From NCBI GenBank assembly GCA_963665665.1, contig OY762428.1, positions 608,001 through 672,000 on the forward strand: a stretch of 64,000 nt of DNA, read 5' to 3'. Position numbers and translations under genes: made by a program. The first letter of the stretch is position 1. Every line of letters starts with the position of its first letter. The notes below the pieces were generated by a model. It worked only from the letters and a program-made list of their open reading frames with translations. It was not told where the DNA came from and ran no database searches. Source of the stretch: Candidatus Kapaibacterium sp. (GTDB lineage Bacteria; Bacteroidota; Ignavibacteria; Kapaibacteriales; UBA2268). Of this stretch, positions 7,701-13,849 are shown in pieces.

Positions 7701-9453
7701 TACCGTGAATATTTCAGAAAACCACTCAGGGGAATTCCGATTCCGGCCTACCGAAACAAGAATATACGAAGCGGAAATTGTGATCATAACTCAGAATGAT
7801 ACACTATTCCAGGCAATTCGTGGCGAAGGAATTGAACCCCGATTGCAAATTGTTAATAAATTGATAGATTTCGGCCAGGTAAGGCTTGGGGAATACAGAG
7901 ACACTCTGGATGTGCTGACAATAAAAAACACCGGGACTAATCCAATTGATATTCTGAGTACTAATCATTCATGGCCTAATGATGTTGACTTTACCACCCG
8001 AAACGGCGCCGGGCCTTTCACGCTTCAGCCCGGAGAGGAATGGCCAATGACACTGCGCTTTACCCCTGGCGAAGCCGGCCGGACAAGCGGAATACTGGAA
8101 TTTCATTATACTGGAGTGGGAAGCCCCGAGACTATTCAATTGTTCGGTGAGGGGTATTCGAAACCGGAAATTGATACGGCTTTCACAAATTTTGAAAACC
8201 TGGACTGTGAAAGTAAAGACTATCGGAATTTTAATATTATAAATACCGGAGCCTTCAGCATAACGGTTTCTGAAATATATCTTTCGGGCAGTAACCCGGG
8301 CGATTTTCAAATTGATATTAACCTTCCGCTGATAATTGAGCCCGGCAGTACTGAAACTATCGCTGTAGAATTTGCACCACAGGAAATCGGGGTAAGATCT
8401 GCCGAACTGAATATTATATCCGATGCCGTGAATTTCCCCTTAGTAAATTATACCTATAGCGCAAGAAAAGACAGCGTCGCACTCAACTGGCAAAATATTG
8501 AGATAGATTTTGGTACGATAAGAACCAACCGCCATATTGATACAACAATAATTATTGGCAATAACGGAACAATTGCCAATACGGGGTTAATAAGCGGAAA
8601 TTCAGAATTTAATATTGATAAAGATGCGGTCAGGCTGAATGCCGGAGAAAGTGGAGAAATCACAATATCCTACAGTGGATCACCCACACCAACATCCCTT
8701 GATGAAGAGTTAGTACTGACTGATTCGATCTGCGGCAGGCAGTCGAATATCCGGATAAAAGCAAATATTGAAGCTCTTGCCACCGCATCTGTCAGATTAG
8801 CGGATATTCAGGCAATGCCCGAATCAAAAATTGTAATTCCCATAGTCCTCGACGCTGAGAATGATATCGGCAATTCGGGGATCGAAACAATATCAGTTGA
8901 TTTTATTTATAACCCGACAGTTCTCTATCCTCTGGACTATTCCCAGGTTTATCTTAGCAACGACGAGGCGAAGATAAGAATTGACGGGCTGAACATACTT
9001 GCAAATCAGGGCGATACTCTGCGAAATATCCGTTTTTCAGTTGGCCTTGGCAATTCTGAAAACAGTGTGCTTCGCCTGTCCAACCCTGAATATGACGACA
9101 GCATTGCAGATATAACCCTGATTGACGGCACATTCACACTTCTCGGCGTATGCCGCGAGGGAGGAGCAAGGCTGATAAACCCGGACATAGAGGCCGGAAT
9201 AATCAACATCTCCCCCAACCCGGCGGAAAAGAGCCTTAATATCGAAATCTCCCTGATAGAAGAAGGACAGACAGAACTTTCAATATTCAATTCCTTCGGG
9301 GAATCTGTAAAGAGCGTTTTTTCAGCAAATAACGAAACCACGGGCGTAAAAAAATTCAAAGCTGACATAAGCAATCTTGCCAACGGCGTTTACTATGTAA
9401 TACTGAAAACTCCCAACCAGCATTTTATCGAGAAGGTGCTGGTGATAAGGTAG
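4798..9453 (+). CDS. Secreted vWA + 7-repeat beta-propeller + choice-of-anchor D/ASH-like Ig repeats + T9SS C-terminal domain protein
   Basis: Signal peptide MKKAIITL; MIDAS FDISASM...T...LTDG; seven ~59-aa repeats (IIWEKSxGGS...DYWIVKL); C-terminal SPNPA...LANGVYYVIL...KVLVIR. Confidence 0.85.
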   Translation: MKKAIITLLLLLPIAAQAQSLKLFDIDTTDYPVIRAKIWAFDENGKQITNLSPSDFEITEDGVLRDVISVSCPEQQPANAVSSVLSFDISASMLGENMSMAKKAGTVWINGLSLGINECAITSFDLKNYLNQDFTTNKDKLLNALNSLQTLGSTNFDAGFIDPMAGALLVAEKGDLKRVVVFLTDGIAKGDEYAIIDKANEINATVFCVTLNMPCPEILKNISEKTGGEWFDNIISASQAEAVYQSILQTVRGGKPCEIEWHSRPACSRTDQTIVEMELSVNQSQAVGHYNTPYNSVANLEINPPYIKFTDPDIGVENYRQITITARNADFDVSNIKVSNSDYDISPKSFFLAKDQSKILDVSYTPAGKDYSYCKFTIENDICEQDYSVSGQHSGGGFNKNYLKLTHPNGGENIYIGSDYLITWEGILPCDTIGLTLSRDNGNSWEIIDNNATNLSYSWNNIFGPESEKCLIKAVYGATTRPRILWEKNYGGSLGEQAESIIELKDGNLIVVGRSESKDGNVSENHGEWDYWIVKINPDNRSIIWERSYGGSKWDYAQSIIEMKDGSLAVAGYSWSQDGDVSGNHGGLDCWILKLDQTDGSIIWKQSFGGSNYDFAESIIETNDGNLVFAGFSSSDDGDITESHGKHSYWIVKLNSGDGKIIWNKSFGGSEWDEAYDIIEMKDGSLAVAGKSNSSDGDVTGNHAWADYWILKLNPNDGSLIWEKSLGGSSDDIPASIIQLNDDALVVAGYSTSSNGDVKGNHGDFDYWIVKLEPTDGSIIWERSLGGTSADYANSVIGLEDCSIVVGGYSYSTDGDVTDSHGDFDFWITKLEPADGSIIWEKTLGGSADDRANALTVLTDKSFLIAGYSYSNDGDPGNNYGLDDFWIVKLTEPQPLLSDTSDAVFSIFAPHAVSRDIDMKQVLVGITKDSVVKEFIMNTGLHPCRIDSIYIRGADAGAFSLVSGFPVYTVNISENHSGEFRFRPTETRIYEAEIVIITQNDTLFQAIRGEGIEPRLQIVNKLIDFGQVRLGEYRDTLDVLTIKNTGTNPIDILSTNHSWPNDVDFTTRNGAGPFTLQPGEEWPMTLRFTPGEAGRTSGILEFHYTGVGSPETIQLFGEGYSKPEIDTAFTNFENLDCESKDYRNFNIINTGAFSITVSEIYLSGSNPGDFQIDINLPLIIEPGSTETIAVEFAPQEIGVRSAELNIISDAVNFPLVNYTYSARKDSVALNWQNIEIDFGTIRTNRHIDTTIIIGNNGTIANTGLISGNSEFNIDKDAVRLNAGESGEITISYSGSPTPTSLDEELVLTDSICGRQSNIRIKANIEALATASVRLADIQAMPESKIVIPIVLDAENDIGNSGIETISVDFIYNPTVLYPLDYSQVYLSNDEAKIRIDGLNILANQGDTLRNIRFSVGLGNSENSVLRLSNPEYDDSIADITLIDGTFTLLGVCREGGARLINPDIEAGIINISPNPAEKSLNIEISLIEEGQTELSIFNSFGESVKSVFSANNETTGVKKFKADISNLANGVYYVILKTPNQHFIEKVLVIR

Positions 9454-10349
9454 GATTGTCAGACATGCTGCTAAGAATGTCTTTTATTAATTTACGGCAT
9501 TATTTTCCTAACTCGTTGATTTCTCGTAACAGGGTAAGGAGTTCTGAATATTAACTGAAATAATTGAACAAGCAATAATATAATAATCCGAAATAGTAAT
9601 TCCGTATCGGGTAATTGTCCCTTGGATTTCCACCCCCATCCAACGGAATTTATATACCATTGGATTATCAATATTGCCGGGCATGTCAAACCCCAATATT
9701 TATGAATAAAACAGGTTCTATAACAGACATTGTGGGTAATCAAACTTAAGATTACCGTCAATAAAATAAACCTTATTGATAAAATTGTGAATATTTCCAA
9801 ATCTTCTGACTCTTCTATTAGCAAACTTTATCATAGGATTGTTAGCTTCAACCGCTGCCGGGTGCGCCCACAGTAATGATATCGTTTTAATTCCATCTGT
9901 TTCAGTTTTGATTCCTGGTGCACCCACATTTATTAAACATTGGTTCTCAAATGAGTTAAGATACTGCCGGATCCTTTTTTCTGTATCAAGGCCCTTGCAT
10001 TCTTTGCAGCTTGTTTCAGTAGATGTACCGCCACGACAAAAAATTATGTATATGTCCAATTGGCCGGGAGTATTTTGGCCGCATTTTTTTTAAGTCTGTC
10101 TTTTGTGTGAACACAATCGATAATAACATGAGAGCCAGTTCAAATTATTCTGCAAAATTTCCAAAATCAAAGCTGATTTTGATCGAAAACGAAGCTATTT
10201 GCAACACAAATTCATCCGGAAGTGGGCCGTAAACAATCTTGAGCAAGGAATTTATCAGCAATTTGCTTTTTTTCCACACCGAAAACTCCCGGAATTGTTT
10301 GCCTGAATAATATCTTTCGCCTGATTTATGAAATCTGGTAATCACAAAT

Positions 10350-10495
10350 AAAAAAAGGGGCCTTACGGCCCCTCTGCCCAATCATTAAGGTTGGAGTGCT
10401 GCGATCTCTCGCAGCAGTGGTTAGAGGAGTTTTTAAACAGTTGGTTCAATACCTCTGTAATATTTTATTTTTCAAATAACATCTGTCGCTGTTCT
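10350..10495 (-). ncRNA. Putative structured small RNA, copy 1 of 3
   Basis: Minus strand: TTGGAT-N17-TATATT promoter, hairpin TGCTGCGA-GAGA-TCGCAGCA, terminator GGGGCC-GTAA-GGCCCC-T7; no conserved ORF; ends approximate. Confidence 0.7.
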
Positions 10496-10501
10496 GGCAC
10501 T

Positions 10502-10530
10502 AATATAAAGTATTCTTTTTAATAATCCAA
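10502..10530 (-). promoter_or_regulatory. Sigma70-like promoter of sRNA copy 1 (also at 10722-10750 and 10946-10974)
   Basis: TTGGAT and TATATT hexamers with exactly 17-bp spacing in all three copies, although the spacer of copy 3 has diverged. Confidence 0.65.
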
Positions 10531-10569
10531 ATACTTTTTTTTAAAAAAAATTCACACACCGTCCAAAAT

Positions 10570-10715
10570 AAAAAAAGGGGCCTTACGGCCCCTCTGCCCA
10601 ATCATTAAGGTTGGAGTGCTGCGATCTCTCGCAGCAGTGGTTAGAGGAGTTTTTAAACAGTTGGTTCAATACCTCTGTAATATTTTATTTTTCAAATAAC
10701 ATCTGTCGCTGTTCT
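10570..10715 (-). ncRNA. Putative structured small RNA, copy 2 of 3
   Basis: Offset 220 bp from copy 1; identical core, a few differences near the start site. Confidence 0.7.
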
Positions 10716-10787
10716 GATGCTAATATAAAGTATTCTTTTTTATAATCCAAATACTTTTTTTAAAAAAATTCACACACCGTAAAAAAT

Positions 10788-10939
10788 AAAAAAAGGGGCC
10801 TTACGGCCCCTCTGCCCAATCATTAAGGTTGGAGTGCTGCGATCTCTCGCAGCAGTGGTTAGAGGAGTTTTTAAACAGTTGGTTCAATACCTCTGTAATA
10901 TTTTATTTTCAAGTTTCTCTCTTTCGTCGCTCATTTCTT
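10788..10939 (-). ncRNA. Putative structured small RNA, copy 3 of 3
   Basis: Identical ~120-nt 3' core, divergent 5' ~30 nt, promoter boxes conserved. Confidence 0.68.
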
Positions 10940-11080
10940 GGTACTAATATATAGTTTTTACCAATATAATCCAAATGTTTTTTACAAAAAACTTAACAAA
11001 TTTGTTAAGTTTAATGAAATGAAAATTGCAATTTTATTAATAAAAAGAACTTACATAAAATAATTATTTAAATAAAAAAA

Positions 11081-13849
11081 TCATTTTTTTGATTCTTTTA
11101 ATGATTTTATAAACATGATGGCCCTGAATAATCCGGGATCTCCAAAATAATTTGCTTCATCAGAGTAATTTTCCTTAACATCAGGTATGCAAATATCATC
11201 AAATATATTTTCTCTATCCGGTAATTCTCCTGAAATTCCGGTAAGCGAACATCTGTAGTTTCCGGGCAGCCAAAGCGGAACCATATCCCCTCCACTACCT
11301 GAACTATTATTACCAACAAGGGTTCCCATATCATAATATTTAATCAACTTGGCAATTGCGTCAGAATAGCCGCTGGTTCTTTCGTCAATAAGAAACAGGG
11401 GCATGGCGGTAAGCCTGATCTCTGCCGGATCGAGCCAGGATTGAAATATTTTGTAACTTACTGATCCACGGTCGGGATGTGTAAAAACCGGAATTTTCCA
11501 TTTAATTGATTTCTTTGTATTATCAAGAAACAACCCGAGGAAATGCTCGGAAACGTTAATATTCCCGCGTAAATCAAAAATTATGTATTTAGCATTTTCA
11601 AGCATTTTCATATTATCGTATAAGAACTGGTCATTTATTGACGTAATATCCAGATAAATTATATCTTTGTCAATCTCTGAAAAGCTTGCAGGCCTGATTT
11701 CCCGTAACTCATTAAGCAGGGTATTCTTCTTAAGAACAATATCCTTAATATTACCATCTTCACTTCGGATTGTTAGTTCCAGACTATCGCCTTGTATGCC
11801 GGCCTTCAGCATAGCCAATGCTCTGAGATTCTTCCATTGATCTGAACTGCCTGCAATTCTGCCATACAATTTTTCAAGCATATCCTGCGTATCGGTTCCA
11901 TTTATTTTAATTACCACATCGCCGGGCGCAATCTGGTTGTTATTCCGGGCAACATCTGTTATAATCAATTCAGAATTCCGTAATTTCCATATTAAGGGAA
12001 GCCCGTAACGAAAGTTTTCATTAATATTCCATACTCTGCACTGATTATCATTTGCAACCGAGGAAATCATTTCAAGTGTTTCAATAAAATCTTCACCATC
12101 CCTGTCAGTAGCAGCTTTCTTCAATGCACTGTATAATACTTCATTCATTAAATCTTTATTGACATCAGAAATCGTAAAATTTGAAATCAGATTCCAGAAA
12201 TATGATAATATTGCAAAACGGCTTGTTCTGTCCTCCGGATGAAGATTATTTTCTCTCGGCTCATTTATATCCAAAGCATTAAGTATGCCATCGGGCCGGG
12301 GCAAAGTTGACATACTATCAACAAAAACGGACATTGGCACCGAAGCATATACATCTTCCGCCAGCTTGAAATTATAATTTCTTCCGGGCCCGGGCAATGC
12401 AAGCCTGTCCTCAACTGTCGAGAAAATTTTCAGGCTTTGCCGGCTCATGCATCCACGGCTTCTTACCTCAATGTTATAACCGGTTTTCCGATGTTTGTCA
12501 CTAAATATCCAACGGCTGGGCAAATTACCAGGCCGGCTGTCTTCAAAATCGTTGTTTCCAATTTTACTTTCCAGCACCTCCCCGTTCATTTCAAATTGCA
12601 ACTTATCGTAACATACTTCACCGTCTCCGATCATCACTAATCCAAGGCGGATATTGGCACAATTTTCGGGAACAATGAAAGAAACGCTGTCTTTAACCCA
12701 TGTTTTTTGTAAAGCACGGGTTGGATTGGATTTCAAAGAACTGATCATATCATCATTAGCATCATCGAAACGTATCCAGACCTCTCCCCTGCTGTATGGC
12801 TTTATCAATTCGGATTTGTAATAATAGCTGATCTTTACTTCTTTTCCCGGCATGCCCGATGGGTCGATATGCTGCATAACTGCTGCTTCAGGGCGCCTTT
12901 GCGACTCATAAATATTTACCACGTGGCTGCCGGTTCCGGAATTTTCTTTATTAAGCCCGGCAACCTGATGTATCTGGGCTAAAGCAACATTATCAATAGC
13001 ACTGGCCGGTTTGCTGAAATAAGGTTGCGGCTTGATATTAAAATCGGTTTTATAAATATTAACAGAAGGTGCTATTGGCAAAATTACATTTTTTAACCTT
13101 TCAACAAGATCACTATTATTTTCCGCTTTCTCGATATACTCCATTCCGAGTAAAGTAAAGCGCATTATATTTATCTGTTTAATTTCCGCGCTTGGATGGA
13201 AATAAGTTAAAGGACCCAAAATTTTTACAAATGCAGCCAGATTTTTCAATCCCTGATCTGATAGCGGAGCTGGTTTTACAAAAGCTGATTTATCTTCAAC
13301 TACAACCTCTATGCTGATATCATCAATCCATACCCTGCCGCTTCCCCAGAACATTGCACCAAAATTCAAAACAGTGGCATACTCGGAAATTTCCGTCTCT
13401 ATCTGATAATGATCCCACATATTCAAAACTATTGGATTATCCTCCATCCTGTTGATCATTCCCTGCTGATTGTTCGCAAACCTCTCGCTTATCCAAAGGT
13501 GAGCGCTGCCGTTATCCCCTGTTACTTCAGCTTTGACTGCCGCCCTTAAAATAATTCGTTTGCCCCTGTATGGGAAAGCATCAATACTTTGCATTACCGA
13601 ACCGTAAAGCGTATCTGCAAATCCTTCTGCATGAAGCAAAAAGGACTGATTGCCCTCGTATTTTTCGTCGTTGACTAATTCAGCAGTGTATCCGAGTTTT
13701 GCAGCGTAGGAAGGTATCTTCCATCCAATTGGTAAAGACCCCGGAGCACCATCCTCGAAATCAAGGTTGACGGGTTGAATTAATGCCTGAGCATATATGT
13801 TATAAGCAAACAAAAACAGAACTAAGGATAATTTTAATATTTTTTGCAC
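11081..13849 (-). CDS. Secreted S41-family peptidase-like protein (N-terminal beta-sandwich/CBM-like domains, PDZ, S41 domain)
   Basis: Signal peptide; repeated NxDFEDxxPGxLP modules; PDZ (PGDVVIKING); IIFDLRGN and GTLVGNNSSG motifs. Confidence 0.75.
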   Translation of the reverse strand: MQKILKLSLVLFLFAYNIYAQALIQPVNLDFEDGAPGSLPIGWKIPSYAAKLGYTAELVNDEKYEGNQSFLLHAEGFADTLYGSVMQSIDAFPYRGKRIILRAAVKAEVTGDNGSAHLWISERFANNQQGMINRMEDNPIVLNMWDHYQIETEISEYATVLNFGAMFWGSGRVWIDDISIEVVVEDKSAFVKPAPLSDQGLKNLAAFVKILGPLTYFHPSAEIKQINIMRFTLLGMEYIEKAENNSDLVERLKNVILPIAPSVNIYKTDFNIKPQPYFSKPASAIDNVALAQIHQVAGLNKENSGTGSHVVNIYESQRRPEAAVMQHIDPSGMPGKEVKISYYYKSELIKPYSRGEVWIRFDDANDDMISSLKSNPTRALQKTWVKDSVSFIVPENCANIRLGLVMIGDGEVCYDKLQFEMNGEVLESKIGNNDFEDSRPGNLPSRWIFSDKHRKTGYNIEVRSRGCMSRQSLKIFSTVEDRLALPGPGRNYNFKLAEDVYASVPMSVFVDSMSTLPRPDGILNALDINEPRENNLHPEDRTSRFAILSYFWNLISNFTISDVNKDLMNEVLYSALKKAATDRDGEDFIETLEMISSVANDNQCRVWNINENFRYGLPLIWKLRNSELIITDVARNNNQIAPGDVVIKINGTDTQDMLEKLYGRIAGSSDQWKNLRALAMLKAGIQGDSLELTIRSEDGNIKDIVLKKNTLLNELREIRPASFSEIDKDIIYLDITSINDQFLYDNMKMLENAKYIIFDLRGNINVSEHFLGLFLDNTKKSIKWKIPVFTHPDRGSVSYKIFQSWLDPAEIRLTAMPLFLIDERTSGYSDAIAKLIKYYDMGTLVGNNSSGSGGDMVPLWLPGNYRCSLTGISGELPDRENIFDDICIPDVKENYSDEANYFGDPGLFRAIMFIKSLKESKK

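Follow-up and report, generated by a model that had tools for sequence, protein, structure and literature searches.

Several bacterial small RNAs (sRNAs) pair with the Shine-Dalgarno (SD) regions of messenger RNAs (mRNAs) through C/U-rich motifs, among them LhrC1-5 of Listeria and RsaE/RoxS of Firmicutes. Their motifs sit in loops or single-stranded linkers, these RNAs act without Hfq, and LhrC1-4 are arranged in tandem; csRNAs likewise carry anti-SD-like sequences. Tandem sibling sRNAs are an established kind of gene, known from PrrF1/2, OmrA/B, AbcR1/2 and the csRNAs (PMC4211561). In Bacteroides, the multicopy FopS sRNAs are expressed from canonical sigma-A promoters and keep translation down by acting close to the start codon, and according to the paper describing them their structure was deposited in Rfam (PMC11697453). 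Here we analyse a tandem array at positions 10346-10975 of a 64,000-nucleotide (nt) stretch of the Candidatus Kapaibacterium sp. contig OY762428.1, hereafter the window. A preliminary description, made from the sequence alone, had taken this array for a multicopy regulatory sRNA or protein-sponge RNA and for a possible undescribed system. We consider it quite possible, though short of probable, that the array encodes three sibling sRNAs (146-152 nt) with their own promoters and terminators, which pair with translation-initiation regions independently of Hfq. Multicopy sibling sRNAs are the best reading in silico, given three copies, promoter-like sites and terminators and no credible shared open reading frame (ORF).

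The array is built of three head-to-tail units whose copies start at 10346, 10566 and 10784, so that the periods are 220 and 218 bp, as had been noted earlier. Tandem Repeats Finder reports 10346-10909 (period 220, 2.6 copies, 97% matches, score 1068), and alignment shows that a third, more diverged unit carries the array to about 10975. The genome is one contig of 5,458,198 bases (5.46 Mb, 99.5% complete), in which a BLAST search with copy 1 found exactly three copies, sharing a 126-nt block that is 100% identical in each (10346-10471, 10566-10691 and 10784-10909); more sensitive blastn (word size 7) found no further array copy in this genome. When the units are compared segment by segment, copies 2 and 3 each agree with copy 1 at 122/122 core positions. 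Outside the core, copy 2 keeps 54/62 upstream positions and 24/24 positions of the 5' segment, and copies 1 and 2 are 97% identical across the whole 220-bp unit, including the spacer. Copy 3 keeps 47/68 upstream positions and 18/31 of the 5' segment, and 9 of 20 positions in its promoter spacer differ from copy 1, in line with the previously described contrast between an identical core and a diverging third copy.

The preliminary description had pointed to misassembly as a possible source of the triplication. In Logan contigs from a run of the same organism, the 126-nt core unitig has a depth of 139.5, the 55-nt piece of 5' segment common to copies 1 and 2 a depth of 90, the junction unitigs depths of 44.1 and 45.6, and the flanks depths of 46.4 and 41.7. 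These values follow the 3:2:1 pattern of the assembled arrangement, which is consistency and not proof, contig depth not being the same as copy number. Because the unitig depths match three, two and one copies, misassembly is an unlikely source of the triplication. The features of the array are as follows.

10346..10471, minus strand: invariant core, with copy 1 as the example; the same block recurs at 10566-10691 and 10784-10909
10350..10495, minus strand: predicted RNA of copy 1, about 146 nt, with its start inferred from the promoter box end at 10500 and its 3' end in the U run
10570..10715, minus strand: predicted RNA of copy 2, about 146 nt, placed by alignment and the same as copy 1 from the predicted start on
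10788..10939, minus strand: predicted RNA of copy 3, about 152 nt, placed by alignments, with the same core and a diverged 5' segment carrying a 6-nt insertion
10500..10531, minus strand: promoter-like site of copy 1, TTTG-N20-TATATTAG, by pattern match
10720..10751, minus strand: promoter-like site of copy 2, TTTG-N20-TATATTAG, by pattern match
10944..10975, minus strand: promoter-like site of copy 3, TTTG-N20-TATATTAG, with both boxes kept

Pattern matching places TTTG-N20-TATATTAG, which is the Bacteroidota/Chlorobi promoter type, once in each unit and on the minus strand only. The promoter proposed earlier, TTGGAT-N17-TATATT, is present in every unit, and its boxes are better read as TTTG-N20-TATATTAG. 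Relatives of the gene neighbouring the array (29 loci) come from Kapabacteria, Ignavibacteria and Chlorobiota metagenome-assembled genomes, at no more than 59% amino-acid identity, and for this reason we looked at how the Bacteroidota-type promoter is distributed in this genome. Matches to TTTG-N-TAnnTTTG were intergenic in 36/70 cases at a spacer of 19 and in 55/75 cases at a spacer of 20; the other eight spacers between 15 and 24 gave 17-42%, and crude gene calls put the intergenic share of the genome at 14%. TATATT, as the -7 box, agrees with the RpoD motif TA[ATC][ATC][AT]T reported in Chlorobaculum tepidum (10.1101/172254). For Flavobacterium psychrophilum, the promoter box is stated to lie at -12 to -5. 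We set the G of TAnnTTnG at -5 accordingly, which puts the inferred starts at 10495, 10715 and 10939, and the RNAs would then be about 146, 146 and 152 nt long. A sigma-70-like GCGACA-N16-TAAAAT element (9 of 12) also occurs in the 5' segments of copies 1 and 2, at 10462-10489 and 10682-10709 on the minus strand; if used, it would give an RNA of about 105 nt that begins where the invariant folded core begins. Its counterpart in copy 3 has a 19-nt spacer.

Three terminator hairpins, AGAGGGGCC-GUAA-GGCCCCUUU followed by a U run, were called at 10375-10354, 10595-10574 and 10813-10792, all on the minus strand, as the preliminary description had proposed. A terminator scan of 9400-11400 returned four sites, compared with 1.2 expected from shuffles. 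The GAGA and GUAA tetraloops are of the GNRA type on the minus strand only, again as described. We propose that minus-strand transcription of each unit would begin at a housekeeping-type promoter belonging to that unit and stop at an intrinsic terminator of the same unit. The earlier picture of three independently promoted and terminated minus-strand units around an invariant structured core is thereby supported in silico.

The units might instead act in cis, as stacked terminators or insulators behind an S41 peptidase gene or as a processed 3' untranslated region (UTR). The array does lie directly downstream of a 922-aa Peptidase_S41 ORF on the same strand, and no obvious GC-rich terminator stands between the stop of that ORF (11081) and copy 3. 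We hold a cis-acting array to be very unlikely all the same: every unit has a promoter-like site at the geometry preferred in this genome, a single terminator would suffice, and no minus-strand gene follows, the next crude ORF (9718-10059) having a TTG start and no Pfam match. A riboswitch or leader was rejected, as no gene lies downstream on the minus strand.

No ATG-started ORF is common to the copies, and the frames that the copies do keep both start with TTG, one of 28 codons on the minus strand and one of 41-44 codons on the plus strand. Pfam matched none of the four small ORFs at E<=1, and the absence of a conserved ORF, stated earlier, stands. It would take translation of one of these two frames to make the array a small-protein or dual-function RNA gene, which we judge extremely improbable. 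Their conservation across copies follows from their place within the identical core. The minus-strand frame (TTG at 10449, stop in the terminator loop) has an AGAGG just 5' of its TTG; however, only 2 nt separate this SD-like word from the start, there is no ATG, and the variant of a diverged sediment homolog (below) is non-synonymous in the frame. As for the plus-strand frame, its C-terminus changes between copies, and the plus strand of the unit is devoid of any ATG, promoter-like site or terminator. Two toxin-antitoxin arrangements were also rejected. A type I (Sib/Ibs-like) system would need an antisense hydrophobic toxin ORF, and none was found, the plus-strand TTG ORF not being hydrophobic; for a ToxI-like RNA, there is no toxN-like gene.

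In each RNA, a 5' segment that is short, variable and rich in A and U would precede an invariant core made up of three hairpins and the terminator. The 146-nt RNA of copy 1 is predicted to fold at -43.9 kcal/mol. Its core is predicted to form H1, in which AGAGG:CCUCU closes around a weak A-U helix (pair probability 0.88-0.97), H2, an 8-bp helix with a GAGA loop, and H3, a 5-bp UCCAA:UUGGG helix with a 9-nt loop; a 9-bp helix with a GUAA loop forms the terminator. The core carries two CUCC motifs, ACUCCUCUAACC and CACUCCAACC. The predicted fold reproduces the 8-bp stem with the GAGA loop and the GUAA-looped terminator seen in the preliminary description and departs from it in three respects. 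The 5' hairpin ACAG-A-GGU..ACC-AA-CUGU reaches -4.2 kcal/mol, compared with -7.6 for the AGAGG:CCUCU alternative; the single-stranded state given to the CUCCUCU tract is contradicted by the thermodynamic fold; and for the CUCCAACC tract, partial pairing with UUGGG is predicted.

The array belongs to none of the known families searched. Rfam 15 (4227 models) gave no match at gathering thresholds across the whole window, in agreement with the earlier statement that no family was recognised, and a permissive scan of 10000-11300 gave 20 matches, all far below gathering. The best of these was STnc50 (30 bits against a gathering threshold of 55), a plus-strand match due to the terminator hairpin; BTnc060, the only Bacteroides model among the matches listed, scored 22.7 bits against 228.9. 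We then built a covariance model, R1, from the core. Among 129 other genomes of the family, R1 matched eight at E<=0.1, the best with 30.7 bits compared with 159.8 for the array itself, and none of them was a real homolog: in 7/8 alignments only the terminator and the A-rich 5' end aligned, and the one full-length alignment fell inside an ORF of more than 1000 aa. About 150 genomes of the order gave a single weak match, to a repeated terminator segment, and likewise no real homolog. R1 found nothing at 29 loci around homologs, in relatives, of the HtrA gene that neighbours the array.

Other searches agree. BLAST in 60 relatives returned four matches of 22-42 nt (E 0.006-0.009), which are AT-rich or coding chance matches. 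Pattern scans based on the two CU-rich tracts gave 24 loci in metagenomes and 2 in viral contigs, none accepted by R1, and blastn against phage and plasmid collections gave no match. In one genome (G145), a near-identical segment of about 100 nt occurs in two copies 4.4 kb apart (L011 1501-1560 and L019 1501-1560); it comprises a terminator (GGGGCUGUAAAGCCCC plus a U run) and the stretch that follows, and has no relation to the array. The weak R1 matches are explained by this duplicated terminator segment.

A run-level search (11 runs) found the array in runs under two organism labels, and a part of it in one metagenome from freshwater sediment; besides the genome itself, the only carriers are a near-identical strain, X4, and one sediment contig. 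The run contigs list 12 differences from the window, 11 of them in X4 and one in the sediment contig. Those of X4 comprise eight at nt 5-35 of copy 1, one at nt 2 of copy 3 and two in spacers; the pieces of X4 that cover the core show no folded-core difference, and the flanks are near-identical to the window (contig cover is absent at about 10603-10633 and 10820-10850). Over 110 nt of the core, the sediment contig aligns with seven differences, of which only one, at 10867, is listed away from the contig end. Changes between copies and strains are confined to the first ~35 nt and the spacers, outside the folded core. X4 seems to carry three different 5' modules on one constant core, and copies 1 and 2 have become homogenised in the window's genome. 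By these comparisons, the RNA family is real beyond its own genome and very narrow, amounting to one genus-level lineage. A 4588-nt contig from the same-organism run also matches 36 nt of the copy 1 5' segment (10458-10493) with five differences, two of which are also found in the second strain. It has about one fifth of the genome depth, and its flanks are GC-rich and dissimilar; given the size of the search, the match is probably due to chance.

These comparisons bear on whether the array is a gene at all. An intergenic segment with a terminator and a chance promoter-like site could have been duplicated twice and its core kept identical by gene conversion or unequal crossing-over, so that the array would be a non-functional tandem duplication. 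The identity of copies 1 and 2, which includes the spacer, does indicate recent duplication or conversion; the 129 family and about 150 order genomes hold no real homolog beyond the one genus-level lineage, and the neighbouring 900 nt are ORF-poor and contain dispersed repeats. Nevertheless, the limits of the identical block coincide with the predicted structured RNA while the flanks of copy 3 are 58-69% identical, and copy 3 keeps both promoter boxes despite its changed spacer. Furthermore, the second strain differs in the 5' segment of copy 1 and has the same core, and the core is retained over its 3' two-thirds in the diverged sediment homolog. We consider a non-functional duplication unlikely.

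We next turn to how the proposed sibling sRNAs would act. A search for Hfq (PF17209) gave no match in this genome, whereas 5 of 14 control genomes were positive, and ProQ likewise had no match. An Hfq-dependent sRNA was therefore rejected, the genome being without Hfq. The genome does use SD sequences: GGAG/AGGA/GAGG peak at -20 to -1 of the crude starts (923 and 922 per 10-nt bin, compared with about 194-347 in the other upstream bins), and the 16S tail ends in CACCUCCUUUCU. Words of 7 nt complementary to the two tracts peak at -20 to -11, with 22 and 39 occurrences compared with 0-9 in other upstream bins. Since both tracts carry CUCC and their 7-mer complements peak at -20 to -11, Hfq-independent pairing with ribosome-binding sites (RBS) is favoured. 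As judged from the sequence, the RNAs would probably pair through the two CUCC motifs with SD regions: the tracts ACUCCUCUAACC and CACUCCAACC would bind the GGAG-type SD regions of mRNAs, and such pairing would stop ribosome binding. Dosage would rise with the three copies, and copy 3, with its diverged 5' segment and distinct upstream region, could be regulated separately or reach extra targets.

The RNA could also bind protein, its three-hairpin core serving as a scaffold or decoy, for example for an RRM_1 protein, with the copies supplying titration. What speaks for this is that the whole 108-nt folded part is invariant, well beyond a short seed and more than most base-pairing sRNAs need, that it bears two GNRA tetraloops, and that the genome encodes three RRM_1 proteins and one CsrA; for Bacteroides, binding of an RRM-1 protein to a family of multicopy sRNAs is reported (PMC11697453). 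By direct reading, however, no GGA motif exists in the 146-nt RNA or in the 5' segment of copy 3, which rules out a CsrA sponge of the CsrB/RsmZ type despite the presence of a CsrA gene and leaves the protein-sponge idea of the preliminary description with no positive evidence. Nor is there a repeated loop motif or an RNA-binding protein gene adjoining the array. A protein-binding RNA is in our estimate improbable.

Several results weigh against pairing sibling sRNAs. An E. coli-type promoter scan misses the proposed promoter and calls the weaker GCGACA-N16-TAAAAT inside copies 1 and 2 instead. The stability of the predicted fold is equal on both strands (a 155-nt minus-strand stretch gives -45.8 kcal/mol, z = -4.60, and the plus strand of the same stretch -50.1 kcal/mol, z = -4.45) and does not pick a strand. 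Both CUCC-bearing tracts are predicted to be largely paired, CCUCU with AGAGG and UCCAA partly with UUGGG, and the proposed seeds may therefore be mere helix strands. No exact 10-mer complement to CUCCUCUAAC occurs in the genome, and neighbouring words occur 0-2 times. Whole-RNA duplexes with 3907 crude 5' regions reached a minimum of -38.6, within the -35.2 to -42.7 of four shuffles, and duplexes of the tracts alone reached -18.4 for m1 (shuffles -17.0 to -19.7) and -18.6 for m2 (shuffles -16.1 to -19.5). As all known cores are identical and the sole usable variant (10867) lies at an unpaired position, the alignment carries no covariation information. Finally, the identical core could be kept by gene conversion instead of selection, and the selection on the RNA suggested earlier is inseparable from gene conversion confined to the core.

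Likely targets were sought among the same 5' regions. Those of the neighbouring genes are unremarkable; the best, that of the S41 gene with motif 2, stands at the 1.2 percentile and includes G-U pairs. Nor does the RNA complement the neighbouring ORF-poor 900 nt to any useful extent. We annotated the 17 best-scoring partners. The sorting domain of the type IX secretion system (T9SS) is present in six at E<=1e-5, one further partner is paralogous to three of these six, and another two encode VWA proteins, as does a neighbour gene of the array. After removal of near-identical 5' regions, T9SS cargo genes are modestly enriched among the best partners: 16 of them stand in the motif 2 top 100, compared with a control mean of 9.5, and 1/22 CUCC-preserving controls reached at least this number; in mean energy difference for cargo genes with motif 2, 0/22 controls were as low. 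For motif 1, the top 20 hold four cargo genes compared with 1.7 (1/22 controls as high), and the top 100 hold nine compared with 9.4 (15/22 controls as high). SD-like words at -20 to -4 are commoner in front of T9SS cargo genes, of which 45% carry one, as against 29% of the other genes. The cargo enrichment is a lead only, as the hypothesis came from the same data, the starts are crude and accessibility is ignored.

The T9SS cargo repertoire of this genome is itself very large, with a C-terminal sorting domain in 362/3907 crude genes by a hidden Markov model (HMM) iterated on the genome. With Pfam PF18962, 150 matches were scored of 375 candidates, over the cut-off for all among the matches listed.

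A more specific version of riboregulation would make the RNAs modular: a scaffold of three hairpins, invariant and presumably bound by a protein in a lineage that lacks Hfq and ProQ, would be joined to an interchangeable 5' module determining specificity, with T9SS cargo genes as the regulon. It is suggested by the clustering of differences at RNA nt 2-35 while the 108-nt scaffold is unchanged, and we regard it as quite unlikely. If true, it would be the first riboregulator for Kapabacteria-like bacteria and would add a post-transcriptional layer to T9SS cargo.

Upstream of copy 3 the following element stands out.

10989..11012, no strand assigned: perfect 24-bp palindrome, upstream of the predicted start of copy 3 (about -50 to -73) and absent from the corresponding regions of copies 1 and 2

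With up to one mismatch, its 16-nt core occurs at five genome sites, and the other four all lie 128-348 nt upstream of crude gene starts. Thirty shuffled palindromes gave a count of 0 in 13 cases, 1 in 12 and at least 5 in one. The palindrome may be an operator with a small regulon. Beyond it, the S41 peptidase has no close relative in the genome-contig collection searched.

On the other side of the array, an ORF-poor stretch of about 900 nt (9454-10345) separates it from a T9SS cargo gene and holds two dispersed intergenic repeat families. The first, about 65 nt long (about 9485-9553), has 10 other copies at 74-84% identity, 9/10 of them intergenic; the second, of about 80-160 nt (about 9557-9713), has 14 other copies at 72-82% identity, 13/14 of them intergenic. 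Neither is in Rfam, and both are candidates for MITE/REP-like elements or another RNA family. A terminator-like hairpin with a T run at 10061-10081 on the plus strand, about 600 nt past the stop of the T9SS cargo gene, converges on the array; it suggests that the stretch with the repeats is crossed by a long 3' UTR or by a plus-strand transcript of its own.

The array is thus, credibly, a new candidate sRNA family of a familiar kind in a very narrow lineage, and not the undescribed system first supposed. It opens no long-standing question, lineage-restricted sRNAs being common. A full-text search found no literature pairing 'Kapabacteria' with 'small RNA', and it seems that no regulatory RNA has been described for this lineage, which is Kapabacteria/Ignavibacteria-like judging from the relatives of the neighbour gene. 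The genome is a useful test case for riboregulation outside model phyla, with its Bacteroidota-type promoters, SD use, lack of Hfq and ProQ, and three RRM proteins. If the RNAs are expressed, the array would give an easy first handle, as one probe detects all copies and copy-specific 5' probes discriminate between them.

Among described systems, PrrF1/PrrF2 of Pseudomonas aeruginosa, OmrA/OmrB of E. coli, AbcR1/AbcR2 of Agrobacterium and Sinorhizobium and the csRNAs of Streptococcus are, like the array, similar genes placed head to tail (PMC4211561). As predicted for the array, each of these siblings has its own promoter and intrinsic terminator, and blocks of identity stand beside divergent segments, OmrA and OmrB sharing their ends and differing between them (PMC4211561). 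The array, in which each of the three copies has a promoter-like site and a terminator on the minus strand, has the make-up of sibling or multicopy sRNA genes. It shows no sequence or Rfam relationship to these siblings and differs from them in having three copies, a core of about 126 nt that is 100% identical, and its variable part at the 5' end; its host also lacks Hfq, unlike the proteobacterial examples.

The array host and Bacteroides share the wider phylum-level lineage (GTDB Bacteroidota). FopS/GibS of Bacteroides thetaiotaomicron, the closest parallel by lineage, has in common with the array its multiple copies and promoters of the TTTG/TAnnTTTG type, and it acts near start codons independently of Hfq, much as we propose here (PMC11697453). 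It is also tied to an RRM-1 protein, and the array genome has three RRM_1 genes (PMC11697453). In contrast, FopS has a single-stranded 5' seed followed by a terminator only, in dispersed copies (PMC11697453), whereas the array has tandem copies with three predicted hairpins before the terminator. Membership in FopS/GibS, which is marked by a conserved seed named R1 in that 5' stretch, was rejected on the lack of an Rfam match and on this different architecture. LhrC1-5 and RsaE/RoxS belong to another phylum and differ from the array in sequence and fold, the motifs of the array being predicted as paired; they are alike in carrying several CU-rich motifs complementary to a purine-rich RBS.

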